The notes beneath the pieces are model-generated. The model was not told where the DNA came from and did not search any database. It worked only from the letters and a program-made list of their open reading frames with translations. Both the position numbers and the translations under genes were made by a program. From a virus, in the IMG/VR virus record IMGVR_UViG_3300045988_043439, positions 1-58,137 of that record: DNA of 58,137 nt. One strand, given 5' to 3'. Shown here in pieces: positions 14,455 to 58,137 of the stretch; position 1 is the stretch's first letter, and the number at the start of each line of letters is the position of its first letter.

Positions 14455-15093
14455 ATGGACAAAAAACGGGGCAGCTTTACATTTCAGCGATACTACTTTG
14501 AAGCCATCTCCACACTGAAAAGCAAAGAAAAATTGGAGCTCTACGATGCAATCTGTGCATACGTTTTTGAAGAAAAAGACGCGACTTTGAACTCAAAAAA
14601 AGCAGAATCTTGTTTCATTTTGATTAAGCATCTGCTCGATGAAGAATTGAAAAGAAGCGATATTGCGTCAAAAGGATGGTCTACACGAAAGTCAGCTCAT
14701 CCTCATGTCATAAATGAGGTGAAGGTCAGCTCATCTATGAGTTCAAAGTCAGATGACAATGAACCCATTGTATCAGCTGAAGGTCAGATGAGCGTCAAGA
14801 CCTTGCCGGAGAGTGCTGTTAAAAAGAAACCTGACATCTTCTCCGACTTTGCTCATGGCGATAAAGCCCTATTGGAATCCCTGCGAGAGTTCGCGCAGAT
14901 GCGTACAAGAATCAAGAAGCCTATGACAGACCGGGCAAAACAGATGCTCTGCAACAAGCTGGAAAAGTTTGATCGGCATGACTGGAAAGCCATTCTCGAC
15001 CAGAGCATCTATGCTGGATGGCAGGACATTTACGCATTAAAACAGGATGACCAGTACGAGCAAAGTGCGGAGATGGAGTTTCCTAGACTATGA
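14455..15093 (+). CDS. Replication organiser / DnaD-like phage replication protein
   Basis: C-terminus LREFAQMRTRIKKPMTDRAKQMLCNKLEKF...ILDQSIYAGWQDIY is typical of Firmicutes phage replication proteins; overlaps dnaB. Confidence 0.5.
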   Translation: MDKKRGSFTFQRYYFEAISTLKSKEKLELYDAICAYVFEEKDATLNSKKAESCFILIKHLLDEELKRSDIASKGWSTRKSAHPHVINEVKVSSSMSSKSDDNEPIVSAEGQMSVKTLPESAVKKKPDIFSDFAHGDKALLESLREFAQMRTRIKKPMTDRAKQMLCNKLEKFDRHDWKAILDQSIYAGWQDIYALKQDDQYEQSAEMEFPRL

Positions 15094-21054: not shown

Positions 21055-21843
21055 TTATACGCTTCTACGGATGCTTGCATAAAGCAGACGGAACGTCTCA
21101 CGGCCTTTCGGCGTTACTCTGGTCTGTACGCCACCGTGCTTGTTCTTCTGGTTACAGTATTCCTTAACAGCAAACAAGCCGTCGCCCTTGCCCGCTTTCG
21201 GCAAGATGCCCTTGCTCTTGTCACGGTAGATGTATCCGTCAGAAATGAGCATCTTGATAAACAGGCGTTCAGGGATACGCAGTTCCTTTGCGGTCGAGCG
21301 GAAATTTGTAGACACGTTCCATGCCACAAGGTCATCGAAGTAGTCGGCTTTGGGCTGCATCTCTTCGTTCTTCTCACAGAGTTGCTTGTTCTGCATTTGC
21401 AACGCTGCACTCTTTTCCTTTTCGGCTTTCATGTTCTGAATCAGCCCGATCACAAAGTCCGGGTTGGCAATAGCCGTCTCCAACAGGTTGTCGGTCATGT
21501 ACATTCCATGCTTGCGGATGGACGGCAAAACCTCGTGAGTGACCCAGTGTTTGAACCGCTGTGCGCTTTCCAGCTTGCTGCTGAAAATCAGACTGTACAG
21601 GCCGGATTCGTTGATGATGGTTGTCTTGCTCTTGTAATTAGAACCATCACCCTGAATCAGGGTAGTGGTTTTATCTTGCTCATCAACGTGTGCTGACAGT
21701 GCGTTCTCAGGCTTTGCGTAGCCAAGTGCTACCGCAATGTCCTTTCCAACAAACCAAGGGTCATCGTCAATGAGCATGACACGGATTTCGCCAAACTCGG
21801 CGTTGTTGAAGATTTTGATGTTCTCAGACAAAGAAAGTTGCAT
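21055..21843 (-). CDS. Second antirepressor (Bro-N plus ANT/KilAC-type C-terminal domain)
   Basis: FGEIRVMLIDDDPWFVGKDIAVALGY...NESGLYSLIFSSKLESAQRFKHWVTHEVLPSIRKHGMY. Confidence 0.8.
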   Translation of the reverse strand: MQLSLSENIKIFNNAEFGEIRVMLIDDDPWFVGKDIAVALGYAKPENALSAHVDEQDKTTTLIQGDGSNYKSKTTIINESGLYSLIFSSKLESAQRFKHWVTHEVLPSIRKHGMYMTDNLLETAIANPDFVIGLIQNMKAEKEKSAALQMQNKQLCEKNEEMQPKADYFDDLVAWNVSTNFRSTAKELRIPERLFIKMLISDGYIYRDKSKGILPKAGKGDGLFAVKEYCNQKNKHGGVQTRVTPKGRETFRLLYASIRRSV

Positions 21844-21861
21844 TAAAAAGCCCCTTTTCAC

Positions 21862-21976
21862 TTGTGAGAGAAGCAATTTTCTGCTATAATAACGGCGAGA
21901 GAATGCTTCTCTCAGGGTTTACATGATACGCTCGCTAAAGTTTGCCGACAGCAGCGAGCGTATCATTTTTCGTTTT
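21862..21976 (+). ncRNA. Candidate ~80-nt antisense sRNA with its own promoter (sar-like) in the RHH-ant intercistronic region
   Basis: TTGTGA (21862)-17 nt-TATAAT (21885); hairpin gagagaa-tgc-ttctctc; perfect 14-bp stem atgatacgctcgct/agcgagcgtatcat plus ttttcgtttt. Confidence 0.3.
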
Positions 21977-22139
21977 CATTGGTGGAATCCATCGGATGCA
22001 GCGTAAAGAACGTTTCACGGAACGCAGCGGAGATGGAGACCCGGTTCTTGATGCAGTATTCCTGCAAGCTTGCAAACTGCCGTTCCGTCACGCTGATGGT
22101 AACGGTGTGACCGTAACGCTCTGCGTAAGGACTACTCAT
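21963..22139 (-). CDS. Ribbon-helix-helix (Arc/Mnt/CopG-like) protein (58 aa, hand-called)
   Basis: MSSPYAERYGHTVTISVTERQFASLQEYCIKNRVSISAAFRETFFTL: beta strand plus two helices in the RHH pattern; directly upstream of ant. Confidence 0.55.
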   Translation of the reverse strand: MSSPYAERYGHTVTISVTERQFASLQEYCIKNRVSISAAFRETFFTLHPMDSTNENEK

Positions 22140-22241
22140 ACATATTCACCCCCTTTCGTTTTGCTGTGCAATAAGTGTAACTGCAAAATATCTGAATGTC
22201 AATCAAAAATACACTAGATATTGTGTTCGCTAGTGTTGACA

Positions 22242-22406
22242 TCAGATTTTGCCGTTCTTATTGGCTGCTCCCGCTTCGTACCCTGCCCGGTAGTTCAGTT
22301 CGGACAGCTTACCCAGCGCTTCTGCGTACTCCCTATCCTCGCTGGTCGGCTCTTTGCCGTGGGCGAGGGTTTTCAGAAATTCTTCGGTTTTCGTAGGAAA
22401 GTTCAT
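22242..22406 (-). CDS. Small charged protein (54 aa, hand-called)
   Basis: MNFPTKTEEFLKTLAHGKEPTSEDREYAEALGKLSELNYRAGYEAGAANKNGKI; RBS AAAGGAG. Confidence 0.45.
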   Translation of the reverse strand: MNFPTKTEEFLKTLAHGKEPTSEDREYAEALGKLSELNYRAGYEAGAANKNGKI

Positions 22407-22424
22407 GTTTTTTGCTCCTTTCTA

Positions 22425-22558
22425 TTGCAGAAGTCGTTTGCTTCTGCTATAATAATTGACAGAAACCGAGACTGCGCCCTTGGTTGCGTAGCTTCTGTTT
22501 TGTGGTGGAATAGGACGTCAGTGCTACTTTGGTCGGTATGCTGACGGCCTATTTTTTT
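22425..22558 (+). ncRNA. Candidate ~100-nt divergent sRNA (promoter plus terminator, no ORF)
   Basis: TTGCAG (22425)-17 nt-TATAAT (22448); hairpin cgtcag...ctgacg followed by a T7 run ending about 22558. Confidence 0.3.
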
Positions 22559-22889
22559 ATGCCACAAAGGATAAATCTACCGCTGTTGGTTGATTCATCA
22601 TGCGTTCTGCTGTCTTAGATTATAGACGCTTGGTATATAGTTGTCAACAGCCCAATTTGTATAATTCTTATCCATGGATACATGGATTTTGTTCACATAT
22701 ATGTGATTTTTGATAGCGATTTACTATCTTTGAGATGCTGTTATCTTGTGATGATAGTTCTTGCCGAATACGGATTATCGAATATTTTTGAAATTGCTAT
22801 ACGTTTTGTATATAAAAACGCATTTGATTGGTGATTTCAGAAATATCTGAACATTGTGATAGTAAAAGCAAAAATACGCAAACTTTCTC

Positions 22890-22918
22890 TTGACGATTAA
22901 ACGTACATGGTGTATAAT
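22890..22918 (+). promoter_or_regulatory. Promoter of the serine recombinase gene, with a GATTAAACGTACA operator in the spacer
   Basis: TTGACG-17 nt-TATAAT; motif at 22895-22907. Confidence 0.6.
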
Positions 22919-22944
22919 AGGGTCAAGAAAGAGAGCTGTTAAAA

Positions 22945-23709
22945 ATGAAAAACGTAGCTGCTTATATCCGAGTTTCTACCGAAGGGCAATGCGGAGAGGA
23001 CAAATTTGGACTTGAAGCACAAAGGGAACAGATAGAAGAATATTGCAAAAAAAATGACATGAAAATTGTCAAATGGTACACTGATGAAGGTGAATCTGGG
23101 GCAAAGCGTAGGCCGGGCTTTGATAGCATCCTTTACGGAAAAGATGATGTTGAATACGAAGCTGTTGTAGCCGCTAAAAGCGATAGAATTGCTAGAGACA
23201 TCAATGTGTATTTTTGGTACAGGATGGAACTTCTTACTAAAAAGAACGTTTCGCTTATCAGCGTGGCCGAAGATTTTGGAGAATTTGGAGTGTTTTCTGA
23301 TATGTTGAGAACCTTTACAATATGTTGCGCTCAAATGGAAAGAGACAATATAACAAAAAGAACATCTAGCGGAAGAGCAATTAAGGCATCTAATGGCGGT
23401 TATAGCGGTGGAAAAGCACCTATGGGATATAAAGTAAAGGATGGGGCACTCATTATTAACGAAGAGGAAGCAAAAATTGTAAAAAGAGCGTTTGAACTTC
23501 GAGATTCTGGTGAAACGATTCGTTCTGTTGTGAACAAGTTAAACGAAGAGGGTTATCGAGGGAGAAAAGGAAACCCATTTACCATTAGCACCGTTCAATC
23601 TATTCTTAGCAACAGGAAAACGTATGAGGGATATTATCGGTACGGAAAGGATGGCGAGTGGGTTAAAGGTAAGCAGGAACCAATTTTGGAAGAAAAAAAG
23701 GAAGGTTAA
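22945..23709 (+). CDS. Serine recombinase (resolvase catalytic domain plus recombinase domain; only 254 aa)
   Basis: AAYIRVSTEGQ (catalytic Ser), DRIARD, MERDNITKRTSSGR, GGKAPMGYK. Confidence 0.8.
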   Translation: MKNVAAYIRVSTEGQCGEDKFGLEAQREQIEEYCKKNDMKIVKWYTDEGESGAKRRPGFDSILYGKDDVEYEAVVAAKSDRIARDINVYFWYRMELLTKKNVSLISVAEDFGEFGVFSDMLRTFTICCAQMERDNITKRTSSGRAIKASNGGYSGGKAPMGYKVKDGALIINEEEAKIVKRAFELRDSGETIRSVVNKLNEEGYRGRKGNPFTISTVQSILSNRKTYEGYYRYGKDGEWVKGKQEPILEEKKEG

Positions 23710-23710
23710 A

Positions 23711-24295
23711 ATGGAGCGTACTTTTGGCGATATTCAAAATGCAGCGAAAGAATGCGAAAAGAACAACTATGTATATGTTTGGTTTTTCTCTAAAGATGAT
23801 CGCTTTGTCCCCTTTTACGTTGGGATTGGAAGCGATAAAAACAGATGGAAAAACAAAACTTCAAGGAGTAAGACATTTAGAGATTTTGTAAAAAGAAATA
23901 AATGCGTTTCCATGAAAGTCCTAGAGAATCTTGTTTATGAAGTCGCAAGAGAAGTGGAAATAAGAACAAAGAAGAAGTTAGTCGAAAATGGATATTTCAT
24001 TATGGATGCCGAAGATGATTTTGATATGCGCCGCTTGCGTCAGGCAGAGGGCATAGCCGCCATGCCTATTGTTGATGGCAAGAGAGTGTCGGCGAGAACA
24101 GGTCGTAGCTTCGGCAGGCAGGAAAAGCAAGTTGACGAGCAGCAGTTTGAAAGCCTATTAGAGCAACAGCAAAAAGGCAAAATTACCGTAAAAGAGTGCT
24201 GCAAGCAGCTTGGCATCGGGAAATCCACTTGGTATGAGCGTGTCGAAAGATACGCAAATAAAAATAGCGGCAGCCCAACCACAAGCCACCGCTAA
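23711..24295 (+). CDS. GIY-YIG-like nuclease domain protein with a C-terminal resolvase-type HTH
   Basis: YVYVWFFSKDDRFVPFYVGIGS..R..N (GIY-YIG-like); C-terminal ITVKECCKQLGIGKSTWYERV. Confidence 0.45.
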   Translation: MERTFGDIQNAAKECEKNNYVYVWFFSKDDRFVPFYVGIGSDKNRWKNKTSRSKTFRDFVKRNKCVSMKVLENLVYEVAREVEIRTKKKLVENGYFIMDAEDDFDMRRLRQAEGIAAMPIVDGKRVSARTGRSFGRQEKQVDEQQFESLLEQQQKGKITVKECCKQLGIGKSTWYERVERYANKNSGSPTTSHR

Positions 24296-39671: not shown

Positions 39672-40049
39672 ATGGAACTTGACCAGTACAATCCGATTCG
39701 GAGCGTGGATGGGCAGTATCTTAAATGCCCCTCTTCTTATCAGTGGCGGTTACAGGACATTTCAGCATCCGATGCCGGACGCACAGAGGATAACAAGATG
39801 GACAAGAAACGTCTTGGACAGTGCGTCAAGCTGGAACTGGAATGGAAGTACACCACCATTCAAGAAGCCGCTGTTATTCTGAAAGCGTTCAACCCGGAAT
39901 ACATCAACGTCACCTACCTTGACGCAATGGCTGGCGATTGGAAAACCAGCGAGTTCTACGTTGGTGACCGTGCTGTTCCTATGTACAATTCGCGGATGAA
40001 TCGCTGGGAAGGGATATCTTTTAACATTATCGAAAGGGCTGCACACTGA
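39672..40049 (+). CDS. Distal tail protein (small)
   Basis: Position immediately after the tape measure gene. Confidence 0.45.
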   Translation: MELDQYNPIRSVDGQYLKCPSSYQWRLQDISASDAGRTEDNKMDKKRLGQCVKLELEWKYTTIQEAAVILKAFNPEYINVTYLDAMAGDWKTSEFYVGDRAVPMYNSRMNRWEGISFNIIERAAH

Positions 40050-41872
40050 TGGTCAATGTATCGCAAGATATCATAAAATCCTTCAACGAGGGCAACAAAC
40101 AGACTGCTCTTATTGAGGTTACTGCTGGCAGCAAGACGTTCACCATCACCGATGCAGATATCATTCAGGGCGGGTTGAAGATTGACCGGTACTGCGTGAC
40201 AAACAGCAAAATCGAGGTCGGCTCTGCGGTTGCGTCTGAACTGTCCTTGAAGCTGCGAAACTACGATGGCAGGTTCAACGATGTTTCCTTCGAGGGCGCT
40301 GTCCTGAACGTTAAAATCGGCATCAAACTGTCCAGCGTCCTTGAGGGCGCAATGCTTGGCAAGGGCATTCTTGGACGTATGATTCTTGGCTCTGCATCTT
40401 CCGATCAAGACGTTGCGTATGTTCCCTGTGGTTTGTTCATTGTAGACACGCCACCCAGAAAGCTAAGCACTATAAGCATCTCTGCATTGGACTACATGGT
40501 CTTGTTTGACCGTGAGGTGAACGCTTCTGCCCTCTCCTTCCCTATCCATGTTGACGCGCTTATTCAGAAAATCTGCTCCATCTGCAATGTCACGCTTGCA
40601 ACGGACGTTTCGGTGCTGCCAAACCACTATTTCAGCATCGGTGGTCTGCCGGATACTAACCAGAAGCTGACCTACCGCCAGCTTTTGCAATGGTGTGCGC
40701 AGCTTACCGGTACTTGCGCGTTTATGGATGGTAGCGGAAGGCTTGTGCTGAAATGGTATGAGCAGACCGGCGTGACCATTACCGCAAGTGAACGCTATTC
40801 CAGTGATATGTTGGAGAACGACATCACCATTACCGGCTTCACCTGTGACGATGGCAAGGGCAACACATACCTGTCTGGCACAGCAGATTACACGCTTGAC
40901 CTAAGTGACTGCGGTTTCCTGACCAACGCCTACGATGGTGTCTTGAATGAATTGCAAGCTGCGCGCGGCGGGTTTGCATACCGCCCATACAGCGCTACTA
41001 TCAAGTCCGCGCCATATTTGTTCCCGCTGGACATGATACGCTACAAGGACAAAGACGGCGTTGTACATGATACCATTGTCACCAACGTTACGCTTGCTTT
41101 GAACTGCAACACAGCGATTTCCGGCGCTGGCGAAACGATCACAAGTTCTTCCTACGCGCAGTCTACAAGCGGCGTTACAAACCAGCAGGCGGCAACGGAC
41201 AGGGCAAACCTAGTAAAAATAAACCAAGCAGAGCAAAACGCCAAAAATGAACTTTACAGCATGATGACGTTTACTCCTGAAAATGGGTTGGTCATCACTC
41301 GTAGCAACTGGGAAGGCAAAGTCCAAATCACAGGCCAAAACGTACAGGTCGTTCGTGGAAACAATAAAGTTGTTATAAACGACAATGGCATAGACATAAC
41401 GGATGGCTATGGAAGTGTTTCTATATATAGCGGTGGCATATCTTTTCACGGCATTCGCAACAGTAAAATTTTTGAATGGCCTTATAAGAAGGATTCTTAT
41501 GGAAACCCTACAGGTGGATTTGATGCACAAACAACAAAAATTGACCTTTCCTCTTACTCATCAGTTATATTAGTTTACGACACACAGAAAGAAGGAACTT
41601 GGCTTGCTTCCGGTGGTGGCGCTGGTAGGCTTACCGTTGTTCTTCCAGTTAACGGACAAACATATTCTTACGCTTATCCGTGGAATACCGTTCATTGGAG
41701 AGAAGTAAAAGTTGAAACCACTGGAATCACATTCGGTTACGGAAAAGAACGAACGTCAGATTATAAAAACAACGTTATAACAGGTTTGATACATTTGGAA
41801 ACTCCCGTTACTGATGGCGCAACCAAAAACAACAGCGTATGCCGCCCGCTGGAACTGTACGGTTTTATGTGA
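40049..41872 (+). CDS. Tail-associated / baseplate hub protein
   Basis: 607 aa; position; the N-terminus is typical of siphophage tail proteins. Confidence 0.55.
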   Translation: MVNVSQDIIKSFNEGNKQTALIEVTAGSKTFTITDADIIQGGLKIDRYCVTNSKIEVGSAVASELSLKLRNYDGRFNDVSFEGAVLNVKIGIKLSSVLEGAMLGKGILGRMILGSASSDQDVAYVPCGLFIVDTPPRKLSTISISALDYMVLFDREVNASALSFPIHVDALIQKICSICNVTLATDVSVLPNHYFSIGGLPDTNQKLTYRQLLQWCAQLTGTCAFMDGSGRLVLKWYEQTGVTITASERYSSDMLENDITITGFTCDDGKGNTYLSGTADYTLDLSDCGFLTNAYDGVLNELQAARGGFAYRPYSATIKSAPYLFPLDMIRYKDKDGVVHDTIVTNVTLALNCNTAISGAGETITSSSYAQSTSGVTNQQAATDRANLVKINQAEQNAKNELYSMMTFTPENGLVITRSNWEGKVQITGQNVQVVRGNNKVVINDNGIDITDGYGSVSIYSGGISFHGIRNSKIFEWPYKKDSYGNPTGGFDAQTTKIDLSSYSSVILVYDTQKEGTWLASGGGAGRLTVVLPVNGQTYSYAYPWNTVHWREVKVETTGITFGYGKERTSDYKNNVITGLIHLETPVTDGATKNNSVCRPLELYGFM

Positions 41873-41881
41873 GGAGATATT

Positions 41882-42160
41882 ATGGAGCATTTCAAATTCA
41901 AGTGCAAAGTTGCATCGGATGGTCGATTGTATGGCGGCGGCTGGTGCCACGAAAGCGTTATCCCAAACCCGCTTCCGCTTGATGAAATTCTGTTTGATGA
42001 CTTGTCAGGAATGACAGAAGGGTTTTATACAGACTATTTGTGGGATGGAAGCAATTTGATATACAGCCCCGTACCAACAGACGATGAGCCTGCTGATCCC
42101 GAAACAGAAACAGCTTTTACGCAAACCAACGAAAATGAAGATGAGGTAACTTATCAATGA
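41882..42160 (+). CDS. Hypothetical tail-associated protein
   Basis: 92 aa with an acidic C-terminus. Confidence 0.4.
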   Translation: MEHFKFKCKVASDGRLYGGGWCHESVIPNPLPLDEILFDDLSGMTEGFYTDYLWDGSNLIYSPVPTDDEPADPETETAFTQTNENEDEVTYQ

Positions 42161-42492
42161 GCTATCAAAAGCAGAACTTTGCAAACGGCGAAGTGCTTAC
42201 CGCTCCGCAGCTGAACCACATTGAGGACGGCATTGTGGATTTGGAGAGCAATTCAAACACTACGCTTGCTGGCAAAGCAGATAAATCAGAAGTGCAAGCG
42301 AACGCGAAAAGCATTTCCGATGAAACCACCCGCGCCAAGGGCGAAGAGCAGCGCTTGGATACCGCCATCACCGCCGAAACCGCTCGCGCGGAACAGGCAG
42401 AGCAAGCGCTGGATACGCGCACCGCAGCCCTCGAATCTTGCGGATTTGTCGTTGTAGACGGCAAAATCTGCGTGAAATATGTCAAACGCTGA
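42157..42492 (+). CDS. Tail-fibre-associated coiled-coil protein
   Basis: N-terminus QNFANGEVLTAPQLNHIEDGI is common in fibre proteins, followed by a coiled coil. Confidence 0.45.
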   Translation: MSYQKQNFANGEVLTAPQLNHIEDGIVDLESNSNTTLAGKADKSEVQANAKSISDETTRAKGEEQRLDTAITAETARAEQAEQALDTRTAALESCGFVVVDGKICVKYVKR

Positions 42493-42506
42493 AAGGAGCA
42501 AAACAC

Positions 42507-43790
42507 ATGACTGATAACACTGAGACTGTAGCTGCAGCGGCAACTCTCGTAACCGAGCCTCCCTATCTGGACAAGACCGCAAAAGACAATGGCAAAAAGC
42601 TTGACCAGATGACCGCCGCCCTGCTGGGTATGTCCAGCTCGCTGGGCGTGATCGCGCGGGCACAGACCGGCGTGGTGGAGGAGATGGACTATAACGGCAT
42701 CAAGGCCGTGGTGGCTGCCGGTAACGCACCGGCGGTTTTCCCGGTGGGCACCCAGCTTGTCAACACCTACACCGGCAAGGACGGCAAAGTCTACGACTGC
42801 CCGTGGGACGTGGTAAAGACGGACGATATCGCCGAGGGTGAGACCGGCACCACCGCACCCGCAATGGTGCTGCAGATGCACTACGCATCTCTGGAAGATA
42901 TCCAGTTTTCCGCATATCAGGCCTTTTTCGTTGTGCCGGAGGCTGGCCTTGTGGCTGGCGCCTACAACGTCAAGATGGGGCTGGACTGGGGCAGCAACGT
43001 AAAGACTGGTACCGTCTACCAGTTTACTCTGACCAAGAACGCCCCTGCAGGCGCACGCCTGACCGGCTTCTATAATGCACCGGACGTTGCGCCCGCAAAC
43101 TGGAAGGTCTACGTCTACAAGGATCGGATGAAGTCCGAGCTGCTGGAGACCTGCAACGTGACCGCCGGTGATGCTGGCACGAACCTCGGCACGTTCCTCG
43201 CAAAACCCAACGGCAACCTGAACGGCTTGCACCCCGTTGGCTACGGCGACAACCGGTGGTGGAAGTCCGCGTATCGTCAGTACCTCAACAGCGATGCACC
43301 CGCTAAAGAGTGGTGGGCTCCGCAGGACGAGTGGGACATGAAACCCGATCAGGCAGACACCGTGCCCGGCTTCCTTGCGGGCTTCTCTGATGACTTCAAG
43401 GCTGCCCTGACCCGCGTGAAGGTCGTGACCTACGGCAACACCGTCACCGATGACGGCAGCGCTGTGGTGACCTATGACAAGATTTTCCTGCCCTCGCTGC
43501 AGGAGATCTACTGCTCGCCGCAGGTGTCTGGCGAGGGCACCGGCTACTGGCCTTACTGGAAAGAGCGCACCGGCGCAAAGACCCCGCAGGCTCTGTGGCA
43601 GACCTACCCGCTGCGCATCACCCGCGATCTGGCACAGCGTACTGTGGGCCGCCGTGTGCGGCTGCGCTCTGCGTATCGTGGCGGCGGCAACGATGCCTTC
43701 TACGTGGGCTCCAGCGGCGGCGTCTACGGCTGGAGCGCGGTCGGCGCGGGTCGCTGCGCCCCGGCTTGCGAAATGACCAATCTTAAATAA
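42507..43790 (+). CDS. DGR target: receptor-binding / tail-fibre protein with a C-terminal variable region
   Basis: RBS GAAAGGAG; the last ~45 codons are the VR (RLRSAYRGGGNDAFYVGSSGGVYGWSAVGAGRCAP). Confidence 0.8.
   Translation: MTDNTETVAAAATLVTEPPYLDKTAKDNGKKLDQMTAALLGMSSSLGVIARAQTGVVEEMDYNGIKAVVAAGNAPAVFPVGTQLVNTYTGKDGKVYDCPWDVVKTDDIAEGETGTTAPAMVLQMHYASLEDIQFSAYQAFFVVPEAGLVAGAYNVKMGLDWGSNVKTGTVYQFTLTKNAPAGARLTGFYNAPDVAPANWKVYVYKDRMKSELLETCNVTAGDAGTNLGTFLAKPNGNLNGLHPVGYGDNRWWKSAYRQYLNSDAPAKEWWAPQDEWDMKPDQADTVPGFLAGFSDDFKAALTRVKVVTYGNTVTDDGSAVVTYDKIFLPSLQEIYCSPQVSGEGTGYWPYWKERTGAKTPQALWQTYPLRITRDLAQRTVGRRVRLRSAYRGGGNDAFYVGSSGGVYGWSAVGAGRCAPACEMTNLK
43644..43768 (+). repeat. DGR variable repeat (VR)
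   Basis: Aligns with 44267-44391; by hand count all 22 mismatches fall at TR adenines. Confidence 0.85.
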
Positions 43791-43791
43791 T

Positions 43792-43815
43792 CACCGGGCA
43801 ATCCCTTGCCCGGTG
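43792..43815 (+). promoter_or_regulatory. GC-rich hairpin just 3' of the VR (DGR homing-enhancer-like)
   Basis: caccgggcaa-tccc-ttgcccggtg: perfect 10-bp stem, 4-nt loop, no T-run. Confidence 0.6.
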
Positions 43816-43834
43816 AGAAAGTGAGTGCTATCCC

Positions 43835-44245
43835 ATGGCAATGCGTAAAGACCAGATACCGGACAATAAATTCACGCTGCCGCTTGACGCGCGTGAGCTG
43901 GCACTGTATACCAGACAGATCACCAAAAACGCGAAAGTGTTTGACCTCGAAATTGACGCAAGCCTTCCCGGTCAACTGCGCGCTACGGCAGACCGGATAT
44001 TTTTTGATATCTTCGGAGCAAACGACCTCCGGCTGGACAAGCCGAACGAAAGAGAGGAGCGCTTTAAGCTTCAAAGGCACGCCGTCCGGCTGTGCACCGT
44101 CCTTTTGGCGGAGATAGACATGGCAAAAGCCAGCTACCACCTTTCTGGCAAACGGTGCTCTTTCTGGGGCAACACTGTGCGCGATATCCGGCAGCGTTGC
44201 CGGGACTGGCACGAGAGTGATGCAAAGCGTGCAAAAGCGCTTTGA
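43835..44245 (+). CDS. avd: Accessory variability determinant (Avd-like helical bundle protein)
   Basis: 136 aa, basic and helical; sits between the target gene and the TR, as in BPP-1. Confidence 0.7.
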   Translation: MAMRKDQIPDNKFTLPLDARELALYTRQITKNAKVFDLEIDASLPGQLRATADRIFFDIFGANDLRLDKPNEREERFKLQRHAVRLCTVLLAEIDMAKASYHLSGKRCSFWGNTVRDIRQRCRDWHESDAKRAKAL

Positions 44246-44266
44246 CATAAAAATGGCTGTAGGCTA

Positions 44267-44391
44267 ATGGGCCGCAATGTGCGGCTGCGCTCTGCGAATC
44301 GTGGCAACGGCAACAATGCCTTCAACGTGAACTCCAGCGGCAACGTCAACAACTGGAACGCGATCAACGCGAATCGCTGCGCCCCGGATTG
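44267..44391 (+). repeat. DGR template repeat (TR), rich in AAC codons
   Basis: tgggccgcAAtgtgcggctgcgctctgcgAAtcgtggcAAcggcaacAAtgcc...; non-coding despite the ORF-track entry 44267-44563. Confidence 0.85.
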
Positions 44392-44547
44392 GACGGCAGC
44401 ACGCCCACAAAAGCCCCTGCATAGCAGAGGCCGGGCAAAAACTGCCGTGCAAGGAGCCGAGTGCCATGTCTGTCCTCTGGCAGACGAACAATATCAGCCG
44501 GACGTGGCCACCCTGCGGGGTGTTGACCGCTATCACCCGGCAGATCC

Positions 44548-45612
44548 TTGCGAGGAGAGCTGAAAAAATCAGTGCAAGAAGAAGAAATAATAATCGGGTT
44601 CGATGCCCTGTATAATTCCGAGGGCAAGTGCGCCAAAGGCGTGTGCCGCAAGGCAAGCGTTGGACGGTTTCACCTGTTTCGGATGGACGAGATCCTGAAA
44701 CTCCAAAAGGAGCTCGCGACAGGTACATACAAGGCACGGCCAACAATCAAAGTTAGAATCACCTATCCCAAGCCCCGCACAGCGGTTGCGAATGGCTTTC
44801 GGGATAGGGTATACCAGCGCTCTCTCAACGACAATGCTGTTTATCCAGCAATGACACGGAGCTTCATCCGGCAAAACGCGGCCTGTCAGACCGGCAAAGG
44901 TACCGACTGGGCGCGCAAGCAGGTCAAGCTCATGATGGAGCGCGAATACCGGCAGCACGGCGCTGATGGCTATGTGCTGTTGGTAGATATCCGGCACTAT
45001 TACGACACGATGCCCCATGACGTGGCAAACCGCTGCTTTGAGCGGCATCTGCCGCCAAGTGTGCATAACCGCGTGCGTGAGGTGCTGGATCGTCAATATA
45101 CCGGCGAGGCCGGTTATAATCCGGGCAGCCAGATGGTGCAGCTTGCCGGGATCTCGGTGCCCGACCCCATAGATCACTACATCAAGGAGCGCCTGCGGGC
45201 GAAAAAGTACGTCCGTTTTATGGATGATAGCCTCATCATCCACCACGACAAGGCGCAGCTTGAGGAGTGGCGGGAGGCGATCCGCGCCCGGTACGCTGCC
45301 GATGGCATGGAGCTGCACCCGACCAAGACCAAGATCGTCAGACTAAAGGATGGATTCCGTTTTCTAGGTTTCATCTACCGCCTGACCCCGGCGGGCAAGG
45401 TCGTTATGACCGTTGACCCGCAGAACGTCAAGGCCGAGCGCAAGCGCCTGTTTCGGCTTGCCCAGCTCATCAAGGCAGGAGAGAAACCGGTATCTGCCCT
45501 GTATGAGCAGTATGGATCATGGAAAGCCCATGCCGCTAAAGGCAACTCGCAGCAGCTGCTGCAGCGCATGGATCAATACGTTAAAACTCTGCTGGAGGGG
45601 ATAACGACATGA
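44548..45612 (+). CDS. DGR reverse transcriptase (start codon uncertain; the ORF track uses TTG)
   Basis: RT motifs: PKPRTAVANGFRDRVYQ, VLLVDIRHYYD, NPGSQMVQLAG, YVRFMDDSLII (YxDD box), KTKIV...FLGF. Confidence 0.9.
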   Translation: MRGELKKSVQEEEIIIGFDALYNSEGKCAKGVCRKASVGRFHLFRMDEILKLQKELATGTYKARPTIKVRITYPKPRTAVANGFRDRVYQRSLNDNAVYPAMTRSFIRQNAACQTGKGTDWARKQVKLMMEREYRQHGADGYVLLVDIRHYYDTMPHDVANRCFERHLPPSVHNRVREVLDRQYTGEAGYNPGSQMVQLAGISVPDPIDHYIKERLRAKKYVRFMDDSLIIHHDKAQLEEWREAIRARYAADGMELHPTKTKIVRLKDGFRFLGFIYRLTPAGKVVMTVDPQNVKAERKRLFRLAQLIKAGEKPVSALYEQYGSWKAHAAKGNSQQLLQRMDQYVKTLLEGITT

Positions 45613-45773
45613 AAATTGTTCGCAACACTGGCGGCATCAAGACCGCCGCCGAAAACGAGAACCGGGACGCGGATTTGGCACAGATCGCGTCTATGGTGGA
45701 CTTCCTGTGCATTCTGGCCGATGTGCCCATTGAGGACGAGGCTGCAGACAAGGAGGGCATGAGCCATGAGTGA
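45609..45773 (+). CDS. Small hypothetical protein (54 aa, hand-called)
   Basis: ATGA overlap with the RT stop; MKIVRNTGGIKTAAENENRDADLAQIASMVDFLCILADVPIEDE... Confidence 0.4.
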   Translation: MKIVRNTGGIKTAAENENRDADLAQIASMVDFLCILADVPIEDEAADKEGMSHE

Positions 45774-45918
45774 TAATCACAGCGCGATCTTTGGCAAAGC
45801 AAAAGACGAGTATGAGGCGGGCCTCTGGTCTAAGGCCATGCTACGCATCCTTGTGCAGCGCAAGCCCCAGCGCCTGACCGCAGCGGAGTATGAAGAAATC
45901 ACCGGCGAAAAGTATTAA
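45766..45918 (+). CDS. XkdX-like small protein (50 aa, hand-called)
   Basis: ...EYEAGLWSKAMLRILVQRKPQRLTAAEYEEITGEKY resembles the XkdX family pattern. Confidence 0.45.
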   Translation: MSDNHSAIFGKAKDEYEAGLWSKAMLRILVQRKPQRLTAAEYEEITGEKY

Positions 45919-45928
45919 GGAGCAGAGT

Positions 45929-46606
45929 ATGAGACCTATCATGGACGTTTCCCGCTGGCAGGGCAGCATCGACTGGGACAAGGTCAAGGCAAGCGGTCTT
46001 GTCTCCGGTGTGATGCTGCGGGCGCTGGGCAACAGCGCCAAAGACGCTCCCAGCAAGCCGTACATCGACCCCACCTTTGAGCCCAACTACCGCGAGTGCC
46101 AGCGGCTTGGCATCCACTGCGGCGTGTACTACTACTGCAAGGCAGTCAACACAGCAGAGGCAGACGCAGAACTTGCCCTGCTGCGCAAGGTGCTGACCGG
46201 CAAGACGGTGCAGCTGCCGGTGGCGGTTGACATTGAGGACAGCTATGTGCAAGCACCGCTCGACAAGCAGACCCTGACGGACATTGCCGCCCATGCGCTG
46301 GGCACGGTAGAGCGCTGGGGCTTTTACGCCATACTGTACACCGGGCTGTACTTTGGCCGTGATAACCTGTACATGGGCGGTGCGGCACTCAAGCCGTATG
46401 ACGTGTGGCTTGCAGCCTACCGCAGCAAAAAGCCCGCGCCGGAATGGAAATTCGGCTTGTGGCAGTACACCAGCAAGGGCAAGATTCCCGGTGTTGTGGA
46501 CGCGATACCGGGCAAGATTTCCGGCGTGGACTTGTCTGTGCCCTACAAGAACTATGCCAAAATCATCGCTAAGAAGGGTCTGACCCGTCTTCGGGAGGGC
46601 AAATGA
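45929..46606 (+). CDS. Endolysin, GH25 muramidase
   Basis: MRPIMDVSRWQGSIDWDKVKASG...; WQYTSKGKIPGV...DLS. Confidence 0.8.
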   Translation: MRPIMDVSRWQGSIDWDKVKASGLVSGVMLRALGNSAKDAPSKPYIDPTFEPNYRECQRLGIHCGVYYYCKAVNTAEADAELALLRKVLTGKTVQLPVAVDIEDSYVQAPLDKQTLTDIAAHALGTVERWGFYAILYTGLYFGRDNLYMGGAALKPYDVWLAAYRSKKPAPEWKFGLWQYTSKGKIPGVVDAIPGKISGVDLSVPYKNYAKIIAKKGLTRLREGK

Positions 46607-46992
46607 CCGAAAAAGAAGCTTTGCTGTGGGTGCTGGGCATCTTGGGCAGCCTGTGCGCCGCTGCCATCACCATCGACAAGGTGCTGGAAATCATCCATAA
46701 GTACATCAAGAAGGCACAGGAGCCGGACAACGCGCAGAACAAGCGGCTGGATGAGCTGGACAAGCGCGTTGGCACCTTGGAACAGGGTCAGCTCCAGCAT
46801 ACACAAGCCCTTGCAAGAGACCTCCGGCGATTTGACGGCATTGACGAAGAAATGCGACTTGTCCTCGTTGGCGTGCAAAACCTTTTGGATGCGCAACTAT
46901 CCGGCAACAACCGGGAAGGTATGCAAAAAAGCAAGACCGACATTAACAATTATCTGCTGAAAGGAGTAACCAATCATGGAAGCAATCCTTAA
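46603..46992 (+). CDS. Lysis-associated membrane-anchored coiled-coil protein
   Basis: N-terminal TM LLWVLGILGSLCAAAI followed by a coiled coil; lies between the endolysin and holin genes. Confidence 0.4.
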   Translation: MTEKEALLWVLGILGSLCAAAITIDKVLEIIHKYIKKAQEPDNAQNKRLDELDKRVGTLEQGQLQHTQALARDLRRFDGIDEEMRLVLVGVQNLLDAQLSGNNREGMQKSKTDINNYLLKGVTNHGSNP

Positions 46993-52755: not shown

Positions 52756-53328
52756 TCAATCCTCCAAGAAATCCTCCAATTCAATCTTTCCTTCTGCCGC
52801 CGCAACTGCCAAAGCGTACACGAACTGTCCAATCGTCATTCCGTGCCGTCTAGCTTCACGGTTGATGTACTTGCGTTCTTCCTCGCTCATAAGGATGGTA
52901 ATGCGCTTGGAACGCTTGCCATCACCGCTTGCAACACCCTGATGCGATTCCGGCATCGGGATTTTTTTCTTTGTCAAGCCAGCTTCGGCTAGCGCGCCGG
53001 GAACATCGCCTTGTTCGATAAGGCGCTGAACTTCTTTCGCCTGTTTCAGCTTCTTCGGCTTACTTTCGCTTACTACGGCATTGTTCGGCTGTGTTCCGCT
53101 GTCTTTGGCTTGCTTCGGCTTAATACTGCTTAACTGTGCTTCATTAGGCTGTGTAGGGCTGTCTGTGACTTCACTGTGCTTAATCTGTGCTTGTTCGGCT
53201 TCGTTCGGCTTTGCTTGGCTTACTTCTTCTTCCTTTGGCTCACTTCGGCTTAATGTCTGTTCCGAAAAAATAGGCTGAAAATCAAACCCGCCAAGCAGAC
53301 CTGAGGATTTTTTGCTGGTTGATTTCAT
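52756..53328 (-). CDS. Ribbon-helix-helix partition partner (ParG/CopG-like) with a repetitive low-complexity N-terminus
   Basis: C-terminus KRITILMSEEERKYINREARRHGMTIGQFVYALAVAAA fits RHH; ATGA-coupled to parA. Confidence 0.6.
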   Translation of the reverse strand: MKSTSKKSSGLLGGFDFQPIFSEQTLSRSEPKEEEVSQAKPNEAEQAQIKHSEVTDSPTQPNEAQLSSIKPKQAKDSGTQPNNAVVSESKPKKLKQAKEVQRLIEQGDVPGALAEAGLTKKKIPMPESHQGVASGDGKRSKRITILMSEEERKYINREARRHGMTIGQFVYALAVAAAEGKIELEDFLED

Positions 53329-54095
53329 CAGCCTTCACCTCCGACAATATGTTGCGCCAACGCCTTGAAATCCTCTGCGCTGGTGCTCTTTGCCGTGTCA
53401 CCGCTAAACAAGCTGTGCCGTTCTGCCTGAGCCTTACGGACGCCCATAGACGGTCTAATCTTCACGTCCAGCAGGGTTGTGCCCATGCTCTGCGCAATCA
53501 CAGGAAGCTGCTCCACAACCTCTTTGGACAGGTTCTCACGGCTCTTGTACTGGTTCAGAAGCAATCCTTCAATCTTCAAAGTCGGATTGAAATATCTGCG
53601 AACATCGCCGATGGTCTGCGAAAGCTGGCTCAAACCAGCCAGTGCGTATCGGTCTGCTGTGATGGGGACGATAATGCTGTTGGCGGCGATCAGTGCGTTC
53701 ACAAGCGCAAGGCCAAGCTGCGGGGGAGTGTCCAGCACAATGTAATCGTACTGACCAGACACGCTTTCAAGGGCTTCTCGCAGCCGGAAGTTTTTGCCCA
53801 TGTCCCTGACAAGCTGCTCGTCAATGTCCTTCAATGCGTTGTCGGACGGCAGAATGTCACCAGCTTCACAGTGCTGGATTCCTTCTTCGACCGTTCCCTG
53901 CCGGGTCATCACGTCAAACAGGGTGCATACGTCCTCTGTCTGTGCCCCGTAGGTGTCCGTTGCGTTGCACTGGGCATCGCAGTCCACCAGCAGGACTTTC
54001 TTGCCAAGCAACTGCAACGCACCAGCCAGACAGGTGCTTGTTGTGGTCTTTCCTGTGCCACCCTTTTGGTTGGCGACCGCTATGATTTTTGCCAT
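53328..54095 (-). CDS. parA: ParA/Soj-family partition ATPase
   Basis: MAKIIAVANQKGGTGKTTTS deviant Walker A; VLLVDCDAQCN; YDYIVLDTPP. Confidence 0.9.
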   Translation of the reverse strand: MAKIIAVANQKGGTGKTTTSTCLAGALQLLGKKVLLVDCDAQCNATDTYGAQTEDVCTLFDVMTRQGTVEEGIQHCEAGDILPSDNALKDIDEQLVRDMGKNFRLREALESVSGQYDYIVLDTPPQLGLALVNALIAANSIIVPITADRYALAGLSQLSQTIGDVRRYFNPTLKIEGLLLNQYKSRENLSKEVVEQLPVIAQSMGTTLLDVKIRPSMGVRKAQAERHSLFSGDTAKSTSAEDFKALAQHIVGGEG

Positions 54096-54112
54096 TTTAT
54101 CACTCTTTCTTT

Positions 54113-54394
54113 TTAGTAAAACGGATATGCTGCTTTTATCTCGTCTCCGACCCACAACACAGGCGTGACGTGCCATGCAATTACGGTTCCTTTGATCTCA
54201 TTGCTATCGGAATCAAACCATTTGCCGTTGATTGTATCGTACTCTCCGATTATGAAACTTTTTTCTCCTGTTTTCTTATCTTCGATACAAAGTAAAAGCC
54301 CATGTGGCCATCTTTCTAGGCTTTTATCCGGCATAACATCTTTAGTCATGTACCACTTGTCCTTGTCATAGCCTTTCGGAAACATCGGAATCAT
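54113..54394 (-). CDS. Hypothetical protein
   Basis: Start set at MIPMFPKG behind AAGGAG. Confidence 0.4.
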   Translation of the reverse strand: MIPMFPKGYDKDKWYMTKDVMPDKSLERWPHGLLLCIEDKKTGEKSFIIGEYDTINGKWFDSDSNEIKGTVIAWHVTPVLWVGDEIKAAYPFY

Positions 54395-54430: not shown

Positions 54431-55528
54431 CTACTTTTGCAGTGCGTCAATCTCATAAAATGCCGGAAGATACTCTTCAATCGCGCCGTCTTTCTTCAAG
54501 CTACCAATCAGATACCGCTTCGGATGGTCAGGCCAGGGGTCACGGTTGATTGAAAGAATATCCGCACACGCAGCCTTTACGATGTCATAGACCGCATCTC
54601 TCCGCTTCGGCAGCTTGATAGATGGGTGTTCTTCCATCATCTTTACCTCGACAACCTTTGCAACCTCGATGCACTCTTGAACGGATAGAGCATCGCACAC
54701 AGACCAGTCGTACCCTTCGTATCCGCTTGTGCGGGGCTTTCTGGCGGCTTTTTTGATTTCCGGCTTGGAGGAATTAGCCGCCTCACAATCAACTTCGCTA
54801 GAATCGGCGTCTATGACGGGCTGCTTGGATTTGTACCCGAATCGAAACTCAACTGCTACTACCTTTCGCCCTGTGCAAATCTTTTCAAAGTCAACGACAA
54901 TGTCTGAAACATTGCTGATCTCTTCCACCGCTGGTTCAAGAACTCTGCGGCGTAAAGCCCGGAAATCGTCATAACTTGCATCGTTTGCCCCCAAGTGGTC
55001 ACGCAGCTGCTTCAAACCAATCTTGTTCGATGTTAGAGAGCGATTCATCCAATCTCGAATCATGCTGTACATCAGAATAGATGCTTGCTGTTTCATCCCA
55101 ATCGTATAGCGCAGACGGTATTTGACGTAGCCGCTTCTTGCAATGTCGAAAAACACAGGCCGCAAGTCAGGATTACAGTTGATTGAAACGTCATAGGACA
55201 AGGATTCTCGATTGTACTTGACCTCTGCCTTTGTGAACAGCGGATACATCACATATTCTGTTCCATCTGCATTCAGTGGTACTGAAACCACGTTGCCCAA
55301 AAAGTGCTTAACCTGCGACTTCAAGTTCTTTGAATTGAGCTTCAAATCCAGCAGTTTGCAATATTCAGCCAGCGTAAACGACACGTTAGAGCTTTCGGGA
55401 TCTCTCGGATTGATACGGCTCAGATAGACCTCAAGCAGCCGAAGCTCGCCTGCTGTGTAGTCCGTAAACTTCGCCCAAACCAATGCCTTGCTCTTTTCGA
55501 CAAGGTTGTTTCCTGTCAATTCTGGCAT
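54431..55528 (-). CDS. Plasmid replication initiator (RepB/Rep_3-like)
   Basis: N-terminus NLVEKSKALVWAKFTDYTAGELRLLEVYLSRINPRDP... is typical of iteron-type initiators; the iteron array lies immediately upstream. Confidence 0.7.
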   Translation of the reverse strand: MPELTGNNLVEKSKALVWAKFTDYTAGELRLLEVYLSRINPRDPESSNVSFTLAEYCKLLDLKLNSKNLKSQVKHFLGNVVSVPLNADGTEYVMYPLFTKAEVKYNRESLSYDVSINCNPDLRPVFFDIARSGYVKYRLRYTIGMKQQASILMYSMIRDWMNRSLTSNKIGLKQLRDHLGANDASYDDFRALRRRVLEPAVEEISNVSDIVVDFEKICTGRKVVAVEFRFGYKSKQPVIDADSSEVDCEAANSSKPEIKKAARKPRTSGYEGYDWSVCDALSVQECIEVAKVVEVKMMEEHPSIKLPKRRDAVYDIVKAACADILSINRDPWPDHPKRYLIGSLKKDGAIEEYLPAFYEIDALQK

Positions 55529-55561: not shown

Positions 55562-55790
55562 ACTGTATCGTGTACACGTCAACGATTCTGTACACAATTA
55601 TTTTTTCAACAATCGACTTCCACATTTTGTACACAATACTCCATTTTTTGTACACGATACTCTCCACTTCTTGTACACGTTATTCCACTTTATGTACACA
55701 ATGCTCCACTTTTTGTACACGTTCTTACTATATATATAAACAAGAGATAAACAAGAGATAAATAATCATCATCAAATAGTGACGACGATA
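55562..55790. repeat. Plasmid-type origin: 7 TGTACAC-core iterons (5 in 21-23-bp tandem phase) plus an AT-rich stretch with 2x AAACAAGAGATA
   Basis: TGTACAC at 55571, 55589, 55628, 55649, 55672, 55693, 55714; consensus CCAC(T)TTNTGTACAC(R)(W)T. Confidence 0.8.
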
Positions 55791-58024: not shown

Positions 58025-58137
58025 TCACATAGTTCTGATAAGCTTCATCAAATCTTCACGCTTTTCTTTCGGCATCTCTACTAGCTTCTGCTCAATCCAT
58101 TTAATATCCGCGTCAACTTCGCTTTGCGGCTGCTGGG
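58025..58137 (-). CDS. 3' end of the cI-like repressor gene (same gene as 1-294; 58061-58137 duplicates 1-77)
   Basis: Reads ...VEMPKEKREDLMKLIRTM then stop (tca at 58025-58027 on the plus strand). Confidence 0.8.
   Translation of the reverse strand, partial: QQPQSEVDADIKWIEQKLVEMPKEKREDLMKLIRTM

Follow-up and report, generated by a model that had tools for sequence, protein, structure and literature searches.

The window analysed here, the complete 58,137-nucleotide viral record IMGVR_UViG_3300045988_043439, carries at positions 42507-45612 a diversity-generating retroelement (DGR), in which a target gene, an Avd-like accessory gene, a template repeat (TR) and the gene for a reverse transcriptase (RT) follow each other on the + strand. 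We are nearly certain that this is a DGR of the type known from Bordetella phage BPP-1 (target-avd-TR-RT) and that it belongs to a temperate siphovirus-like phage of Faecalibacterium prausnitzii or Oscillospiraceae. An initial annotation, made from the sequence alone, had proposed a complete DGR, and this is borne out by an asymmetry of mismatches restricted to adenines, the gene order of BPP-1, an RT resembling the BPP-1 enzyme (bRT) and population variation at the TR-adenine sites. The element is evidently a complete and active DGR.

A repeat finder reports a gapless 124-nt direct repeat with 83% identity and an offset of 623 between 43645-43768, the variable repeat (VR) near the 3' end of the target gene, and 44268-44391, the TR (both + strand), and this pair is the only long direct repeat reported within 41-47 kb. 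A base-by-base comparison at this offset gives 21 mismatches, every one opposite an A of the downstream copy, with A>G 16, A>T 3 and A>C 2 in the direction TR to VR. The TR contains 29 adenines among its 124 nt, 28 of them 5' of the predicted start of complementary DNA (cDNA) synthesis, and for all 21 mismatches to coincide with an A the hypergeometric probability is 1.4e-17. Adding the pair 43644/44267 (G versus A) results in 22 mismatches over 125 bp, exactly the count given initially for a stretch of about 125 bp, and all the dinucleotide changes named there (AA to CG, TA, GG, GA and AG) are found. Mismatches at non-A positions of the TR, which the initial annotation had set as evidence that would speak against a DGR, are absent from the exact alignment.

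The reading of all 22 mismatches as products of adenine mutagenesis needs a correction at the repeat edges. Across 26 related cassettes and the window, VR position 43644 is always G and position 43765 always C; since they never vary, these two are fixed boundary differences and not mutagenesis products, leaving 20 of the 22 at diversified sites, which span 43653-43750. In the same set, VR position 43713 is an invariant A within an AGC serine codon, and its constancy is taken as a reflection of selection on that serine. A second VR was found nowhere else in the window, neither with BLAST nor with an adenine-blind scan, both strands being covered.

Read in the frame of the target open reading frame (ORF; 42507-43790), the TR is composed of nine AAC and four AAT codons plus one each of ATC, AGC and GAT, in agreement with the AAC-type diversified codons described before. 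All TR adenines stand at codon position 1 or 2 and none at position 3. Mutagenesis of the adenines at positions 1 and 2 of the 13 AAY codons and of the one ATC codon would create no stop codon and would allow as many as about 8e15 variants of the protein; no stop is present in any of the 20 distinct VRs translated. The 98-residue ORF 44267-44563 is the TR read in the VR frame. As the initial annotation had recognised, it is not a gene, and we rejected it as such because the long ORF seen here is not kept in relatives; its exact translation is present on at least 1000 public contigs.

Variation among related loci was collected by scanning IMG/VR with the repeat sequence carrying N at every TR-adenine position, which yielded 52 loci, most of them with both copies, and by searching metagenomes with a TR-anchored pattern, which yielded 24 further loci including some duplicates. 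The VR/TR pattern is absent from 185,579 representative genomes. In a MAFFT alignment of 26 full cassettes and the window (27 cassettes), the mean column entropy of VR positions opposite TR adenines is 1.50 bits, with 27 of 29 positions variable, versus 0.012 at the other VR positions, 0.027 in avd and 0.016 in the RT gene. The public contigs alone therefore show hypervariation limited to 27 adenine-templated sites. When VRs were picked by their 3' flank alone, without requiring the pattern at non-A sites, 58 distinct VRs (66 loci) were obtained, in which 40 of 5336 non-A positions differ from the TR (0.75%). At TR-adenine positions the same VRs carry A in 44%, G in 32%, T in 16% and C in 9% of cases, 56% being not A.

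Sixteen genome pairs have no difference in the 1720 nt covering avd, spacer and RT, yet differ at 12-21 of 28 VR sites. As siblings identical across avd-RT carry unrelated VRs, VR turnover is recent in this lineage. It is far faster than background divergence, as an active DGR predicts.

The RT gene (44572-45612, + strand) begins 180 nt past the TR end. The most likely start is a GTG at 44572 with a GAGGAG site upstream, giving 346 residues; a TTG at 44548 would give 354. The ORF is intact and includes the YxDD box reported initially, in the form FMDD. The protein matches the Pfam family RVT_1 and phrog_1423 (E 1.8e-68), and its best solved-structure match is the 328-residue RT in 8ub7; the alignment takes in the full length of this RT (E 1.1e-15), whose sequence agrees with BPP-1 bRT in the region shown. 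A BLASTP comparison with bRT of NC_005357 gives 24% identity over 330 residues (E 3e-21), and among the phage relatives obtained with tblastn are some whose annotation records a DGR.

Motif 4 of the RT (45133-45156) reads PGSQMVQL and is aligned to IGSLTSQL of bRT. The 'GSQ motif' of the initial annotation is thus a mis-registration, as GSQ occupies G-x1-x2 of P-G-x-x-x-V-Q and not the SQ of the signature. Some 90% of DGR RTs are reported to carry the signature [I/V/L]GxxxSQ, in which the first two residues hardly vary, while exceptions are known in the last two, VQ being among the rare variants (PMC3521204). Proline at the first position is not among the variants given in that study (PMC3521204). 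The residue at this position of bRT, I181, promotes adenine mutagenesis (PMC7826257). The motif [P/A]GSQx[V/I]Q[I/L] is present in all 114 nearest RT homologues (50-99% identity), out of 1967 proteins at E <= 1e-10; R74 is kept, and the catalytic motif is FMDD in the subclade of the window and YMDD in the wider clade.

An RT-alignment search provided relatives at 83-84%, 74-75% and 50-53% RT identity, and the same layout with A-specific mismatches is seen in 28 of 30 relatives (50-84% RT identity), the other two being truncated. Because these 28 relatives still have A-specific TR/VR pairs, we treat the signature as typical and not as strictly defining. PGSQMVQ is a clade-level variant of the signature and not an exclusion from the DGRs. 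The public contigs also show that Ile, Val or Leu at the first signature position is not required for adenine-specific mutagenesis.

The accessory gene (43835-44245, + strand) encodes a protein of 136 residues with an isoelectric point (pI) of 9.47. The initial description as a small helical Avd-like ORF is favoured by the match to phrog_3206 ('Avd protein of DGR', E 1.2e-7), the basic character, four predicted helices and the gene position, but not by any similarity to the BPP-1 protein bAvd. An accessory variability determinant (Avd) is a small, basic four-helix bundle whose gene adjoins the TR. Reported Avd proteins have a mean pI of 9.5 +/- 0.7, and conservation among avd genes is very low (PMC5758913). 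The four helices come from an AlphaFold2 (AF2) model of moderate confidence (predicted local distance difference test, pLDDT, 65), for which the top Foldseek match is 2gsc with a probability of 0.98 but an E-value of 0.19. Searches with the protein gave no Pfam, NCBIfam or PADLOC match and no PDB sequence match, either as a single sequence or as a 90-member profile. Its family counts 511 representatives, and the 90 members scanned include seven matches to PF05635 or PF22296 (bAvd). Identical or near-identical public sequences are named 'Four helix bundle protein' and 'Avd-like', and the exact protein sequence occurs on at least 1000 public contigs.

The alignment of relatives supports a structured RNA in which two predicted duplexes surround the TR. 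The TR 3' end and spacer of 17 relatives, aligned for RNAalifold, yield 34 pairs, 28 of which show compensatory changes. The fold has 90.9% of alignment cells paired versus 38-48% when the strands are slid, and none of 500 shuffles reaches the observed value. It includes a duplex between the TR 3' end (44384-44396) and the spacer (44445-44454), spanning 44384-44454 on the + strand and enclosing a hairpin at 44404-44435, and this duplex is the analogue of the BPP-1 TR:Sp template:primer duplex. A second predicted duplex joins the upstream strand ATGGC-TGTA-GGCT (44253-44265, + strand), which sits in the 22-nt gap between avd and TR, to the invariant spacer strand AGCC-GAGT-GCCAT (44455-44467) and corresponds to the avd:Sp 'cPRT stop' duplex of BPP-1. 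Here 93.5% of cells are paired in 12 relatives versus 26-54% when slid, again with 0 of 500 shuffles reaching this, and covariation is seen at three distal pairs.

The remaining spacer RNA (44455-44544, + strand) is predicted to consist of the strand 44455-44467, a stem-loop (44468-44485), an invariant AACA (44487-44490) and a 3' helical domain (44494-44544). The spacer is nearly invariant among siblings (entropy 0.008). A single-sequence fold of TR and spacer is marginal (z = -2.0), the structure becoming clear only with relatives, and no Rfam family was found in 42000-46500. In the complex of bRT, Avd and RNA from BPP-1, an avd:Sp 'stop' duplex comes directly after a TR:Sp template:primer duplex, and behind it stand a short stem-loop and adenosines that are unpaired; conserved RNA elements have been predicted for 207 DGRs (bioRxiv 10.1101/2023.10.23.563531). 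An RNA architecture mirroring the BPP-1 ribonucleoprotein in a distant Gram-positive phage clade supports a conserved cis-priming mechanism.

At the 3' end of the VR, the GC-rich 14-mer TCGCTGCGCCCCGG (43751-43764, + strand) is identical in the TR (44374-44387), and the copies diverge from 43765/44388 on. It looks like an initiation of mutagenic homing (IMH) element; in DGRs, VR and TR differ in the sequences past IMH and IMH*, which determines the direction of transfer. The TR adenine at 44388, directly 3' of TCGCTGCGCCCCGG, is never transferred, VR position 43765 being C in 27 of 27 genomes, so that on the 3' side the transfer of information ends at or inside TCGCTGCGCCCCGG. The constancy of 43765 is explained if cDNA synthesis starts, as predicted, 5' of A44388.

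Directly after the target stop codon, and 23 nt past the VR homology, begins a perfect GC-rich 11-bp hairpin or cruciform, TCACCGGGCAA-TCCC-TTGCCCGGTGA (43791-43816, + strand), with a 4-nt loop and a DNA fold z of -3.2. GC-rich hairpins of 6-12 bp are located 16-32 nt past the VR in 15 of 15 relatives, with stems differing in sequence and loops that are mostly YNCC. The hairpin used for target recognition in BPP-1 and other phage DGRs is described to have a 7-10 bp stem and a 4-nt GRNA loop and to lie 4-34 bp from the VR (PMC3240598); apart from the loop sequence, the hairpin of the window agrees with this element. A role as + strand terminator was ruled out, as there is no T-run on this strand; the hairpin is terminator-like on the - strand, where no gene lies. 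No convincing sigma-70 promoter or + strand intrinsic terminator was found.

These elements suggest a mechanism in which cis-priming, the role of the Avd-like protein, homing and the function of the target are inferred by analogy. A transcript of about 44250-44545 would fold with the TR looped out between two duplexes, the spacer being paired with the stretch immediately upstream of the TR in the stop duplex and with the TR 3' end in the template:primer duplex. The RT together with the basic Avd-like protein would prime cDNA in cis near position 44383, inside the GC-rich 14-mer and just 5' of the duplex. Synthesis would run along the TR towards 44268 and stop before 44265; these predicted limits fit both the absence of transfer at A44388 and the beginning of TR/VR homology at 44267/44268. 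C, G and U would be copied faithfully, while any nucleotide could be inserted opposite adenines. The cDNA would then replace the VR at 43645-43764, guided to its target by the GC-rich 14-mer common to both copies and by the hairpin or cruciform downstream.

Substitutions in the templates of related cassettes provide natural markers of transfer from TR to VR. The TR is identical to that of the window in 41 of 73 related TR slots; counted as 54 distinct TR/VR pairs, 30 have the all-adenine TR of the window, whereas the TR slot of the other 24 is substituted. Fourteen TR variants carry one to three substitutions; in these, all 23 substitutions lie at adenine sites (P 3e-15), and the VR of the same contig shares the substituted base at 22 of the 23 sites (P 3e-10), the VRs being otherwise unrelated. 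In 16 of 22 cases, TR and VR differ at a position no more than 10 nt away from the shared site, which rules out a k-mer chimera with the assembled VR in these cases. Several variants recur in independent contigs, such as A>T at 44312 (loci L028, L079 and L080), a G..T variant (L026, L041 and L073) and GG at the first AA (several loci and a protein from a F. prausnitzii metagenome-assembled genome, MAG), and one TR variant is found on 12 contigs with a linked change outside the TR. This shows that non-adenine TR bases are copied faithfully into the VR and that TR adenines change far more often than the 92 other TR positions.

We tentatively propose, as a possibility that we consider rather doubtful, that information flow is not strictly one-way and that the TR is slowly rewritten at adenines, either because mutagenised cDNA occasionally homes into it or through conversion from VR to TR, in a large gut-phage RT clade with proline at the equivalent of bRT I181. 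If so, templates would become heritable and partly 'eroded', constraining all later VRs. Purifying selection could also produce the A-site bias of the TR substitutions. Heavy substitution combined with disagreement between TR slot and VR of one contig (L007, L051, L043, L008 and L001) may be an assembly artefact, and could come from the assembly of mixed populations.

The target gene (42507-43790, + strand) starts with an ATG preceded by a GGAG ribosome-binding site and encodes 427 residues, with DUF6273 at residues 242-406 (Pfam, E 2.8e-11). The VR covers about 125 nt preceding the final 22 nt of the ORF and encodes residues of about 380-419, at the C-terminal end of DUF6273. DGR targets present their variable residues on a fold of the C-type lectin or Ig-like kind. 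DUF6273 is described to be C-type-lectin-like (bioRxiv 10.1101/2024.10.15.618418), and DUF6273 proteins with the VR at their C-terminus are known as DGR targets of Faecalibacterium phages (PMC11792537; bioRxiv 10.1101/2024.10.15.618418). The target has more than 1330 homologues, the top 120 being 92-99% identical, and matches phrog_19280 and phrog_10993; no PDB sequence match was obtained, and an hhalign comparison with the BPP-1 target Mtd was negative.

The gene stands at the end of the tail module directly ahead of the lysis genes, the position of mtd in BPP-1. By analogy, its product is probably a virion surface or receptor-binding protein with a lectin-like C-terminal domain. The more specific designation as a distal tail-fibre gene agrees with this location between tail and lysis genes, which is its sole basis; outside the VR, no sequence similarity to any annotated tail fibre was found in the PHROG, PDB and Roseburia phage Shimadzu comparisons, and the BLASTP match to the annotated tail fibre of Shimadzu (E 0.032) lies inside the VR only.

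Upstream of the VR (42507-43644), the target gene diverges by up to about 10% (111/1090 nt) between genomes with identical avd-spacer-RT, which suggests recombination within the target gene, and the first 12 or so residues of the window protein differ from the family consensus. The variable N-terminal part of the target co-varies with the phage backbone. In siblings that are otherwise collinear (L007, L013, L021, L030, L043 and L051), a swap at about 41227-42136 replaces the C-terminal part of a 607-residue tail protein (40049-41872) and a small ORF (41882-42160) with unrelated sequence, an exchange pattern typical of receptor-binding domain swapping.

It is quite possible, though not the reading we prefer, that the DGR is real and its target is an accessory surface adhesin (a capsid- or tail-decorating protein of the 'tentaclin' or Hoc-like kind) or a lysogen protein, and not the distal tail fibre or primary receptor-binding protein. 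The PHROG match over the DUF6273 part is annotated 'Hoc-like head decoration', and the DUF6273 targets of Faecalibacterium phages include Hoc-like and tentaclin proteins, one of them reported in a bacterial secretome (PMC11792537; bioRxiv 10.1101/2024.10.15.618418). The lack of similarity to the Shimadzu tail fibre beyond the VR points the same way, as does the swapped, receptor-binding-like C-terminal part of the upstream 607-residue protein. A role in primary receptor binding is favoured by the place of the gene at the close of the tail module, as for mtd, by the absence of tentaclin-type Ig-like repeats from the target (Pfam), and by the co-variation of its N-terminal part with the backbone, which is expected of a virion attachment domain.

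Several observations weigh against a straightforward BPP-1-type DGR. Activity is seen for the lineage and not for this particular genome copy, and TR changes in 24 of the 54 related cassettes are not predicted by a strictly one-way BPP-1 model. The RT departs at two positions from the signature [I/V/L]GxxxSQ, with G and Q kept, and on the sense strand the TCCC of the hairpin loop deviates from the GRNA consensus. No similarity between the Avd-like protein and bAvd is detected (phmmer; hhalign of the family), and the structure model of this protein is only moderately confident and its fold match weak (E 0.19). For the target, the AF2 model has a pLDDT of 31 from a shallow alignment of sequences that are 92-99% identical, so that the fold is not modelled.

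One rival reading is a DGR by descent of which this copy is a dormant relic, with VR differences inherited from an ancestor. In its favour, DGRs are often under regulation and may be active only rarely, and eroded TRs occur in some relatives. We nevertheless judge a relic very unlikely: the RT ORF with its FMDD is intact, as are the hairpin, the GC-rich element and the RNA duplexes, the window has the all-adenine TR that dominates in public data (at least 1000 contigs), and siblings identical across avd-RT carry unrelated VRs. That an ordinary duplication or gene-conversion pair happens to lie beside an RT of separate origin, from a group II intron, a retron or an anti-phage defence system, is hardly credible. 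The best NCBIfam model for the RT is indeed group_II_RT_mat, yet at 76 bits against a cut-off of 300, and the matches to generic RT and DRT models of PADLOC are weak, any defence RT model reaching at most 90 bits versus 233 bits for phrog_1423. A group II intron maturase appears as the second structure match (partial, E 2.9e-7), and no retron RT is among the matches. The full-length match to bRT as the best solved structure and the low defence-model scores contradict a group II intron, retron or defence RT, and no intron RNA, retron or other Rfam family was found in 42000-46500. Chance duplication is contradicted by the A-only mismatches, and the confinement of variation to A sites in the 58 VRs and the retention of layout and asymmetry in 28 of 30 relatives argue likewise for a DGR.

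The BPP-1-type DGR of the window shares with its namesake the order and orientation of target with 3' VR, avd, TR and RT, followed by two small ORFs and a lysin; in BPP-1 the neighbourhood is tail fibre, mtd with 3' VR, avd, TR, brt, two small ORFs and endolysin. The order target, Avd-like ORF, TR and RT asserted initially is thus identical to that of BPP-1, and the identity extends to the small ORFs and the lysin. Both systems show the A-specific asymmetry with AAY codons, over 124 nt here and 134 nt in BPP-1, a GC-rich element that ends the repeat before the copies diverge (IMH and IMH*), and a GC-rich hairpin with a 4-nt loop downstream of the VR. The RTs are homologous over their full length (E 3e-21) and keep R74, the motif-4 G and Q, and xMDD, and in both RNAs the duplex of TR 3' end and spacer is directly followed by the duplex of upstream strand and spacer, a stem-loop and unpaired adenosines. 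In contrast, RT identity is only 24%, with PGSQMVQ and FMDD here and IGSLTSQ and YMDD in bRT, and between the accessory protein and bAvd no sequence similarity is detected. The upstream strand of the second duplex is placed in the 22-nt avd-TR gap, not within avd, the loop of the hairpin reads TCCC where GRNA is the consensus, and no similarity of the DUF6273 target to Mtd is detected. The phage has a Gram-positive anaerobe of the gut as host and a siphovirus-like virion, its tape measure protein counting 1406 residues.

Further counterparts are the DGRs of the gut phages Lelie, Toutatis, Roos, Pioen, CP11, Lagaffe, Mushu and Roseburia phage Shimadzu, compared here as a Faecalibacterium/Roseburia set. 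They share the host group, DUF6273 targets with a C-terminal VR and an avd-TR-RT array adjoining tail and lysis genes, and their RTs are 31-32% identical to that of the window. The annotated order of Shimadzu (tail fibre - Avd - RT - endolysin) is the same layout as in the window. They differ in that no near-identical DNA is present in the phage collection searched, that Shimadzu and Lelie have the canonical LGxxxSQ where the clade of the window has PGSQx[VI]Q, and that Lelie, Toutatis, CP11 and Lagaffe_CP have two VRs and the window one. The window moreover has a Rep3/iteron/ParA replicon, with no tyrosine integrase among the ORFs scanned.

Vibrio phage VP585 and Aeromonas phage phiARM81mr are plasmid-like prophages. 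Their RTs are about 28% identical to that of the window over 91-92% of the length, and a DGR on a phage genome with plasmid-type maintenance genes would be common to them and the window. Host phylum and replicon type differ, the window being a circular genome that has iterons and a Rep3 initiator. The presence of DGRs on plasmid-like prophages is not new.

DGRs are a known system, and DGRs with DUF6273 targets in Faecalibacterium phages have already been published (PMC5883640, PMC11792537, bioRxiv 10.1101/2024.10.15.618418); the known concept of the DGR is unchanged by our findings. What they add is modest, namely a clade-wide proline variant of the RT signature, a covariation-backed RNA model in a Gram-positive phage clade, and natural marker transfer accompanied by change of TR adenines. 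As a DGR found in nature the element is of textbook clarity, and it belongs to a highly abundant lineage of phages of F. prausnitzii, a health-associated gut bacterium.

The surrounding genome has an exact 77-bp terminal direct repeat (1-77 and 58061-58137), leaving 58,060 bp of unique sequence, which indicates that it is circularly closed or terminally redundant. The phage gene set is complete and includes terminase, portal, major head protein, the 1406-residue tape measure protein, tail proteins and a GH25 lysin, further phage genes being Erf, DnaB, a methyltransferase and anti-repressors. On the - strand are located a Rep3_N + Rep3_C initiator (54431-55528), whose homologues are annotated as replication initiators on 623 plasmids, a ParA gene (53328-54176) and a small NikA/ribbon-helix-helix-like ORF (52756-53328). 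The rep gene is adjoined by putative iterons, five to seven TTCCACTTTTTGTACACAAT-like direct repeats, each about 21-22 nt long, at 55585-55742, with an AT-rich stretch after them. No tyrosine integrase was found among the ORFs scanned, the scan not being exhaustive.

Judged by gene content, Rep3, iterons, ParA and the circular genome are the genotype of a phage-plasmid. The initial impression of a phage-plasmid is in keeping with these features of the circular 58,060-bp genome, but the same DGR-lysis module is also found in integrated prophages and chromosomal contigs. The block 42295-46611, comprising the DGR and lysis genes and partly extending to 47791, is 95% identical to 9789-14108 of L053, a 133-kb contig with a different backbone, an 893-residue tape measure protein and smpB about 10 kb downstream of the block. 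Many IMG/VR relatives share only the DGR-lysis block, and the DGR module also occurs on another backbone in a 1.2-Mb F. prausnitzii MAG contig. A block common to such differing backbones points to a mobile mosaic DGR-lysis module that is not confined to the phage-plasmid backbone. Between 42 and 50 kb the GC content is 0.55-0.58, versus 0.40-0.52 elsewhere in the window. The host assignment to F. prausnitzii/Oscillospiraceae follows the names on identical Avd-like and TR-ORF proteins; the cassette DNA has no near-identical match in the phage and plasmid collections searched, and the structural region matches unannotated faecal virome fragments only.

Two small ORFs of 54 and 50 residues (45609-45918) lie between the RT gene and the GH25 lysin, and the L053 counterpart of the second matches the Pfam family Phage_XkdX. 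At 14704-14898, L053 further contains a 64-residue ORF matching the Pfam family Acb2_Tad1_hairpin, an anti-defence sponge family; this ORF is an insertion absent from the window, where the sequence is contiguous (at about 47316). In a low-GC island (22001-24000, GC 0.398), the window encodes a serine recombinase of 254 residues (22945-23709) with a Resolvase and a partial Recombinase domain, which may be an integrase remnant, a resolvase or an invertase and is overlapped in another frame by an ORF without Pfam match (23624-24295). Two separate anti-repressor genes (Ant / Bro-N + KilAC) are located at 708-1469 and 21055-21876 on the - strand.

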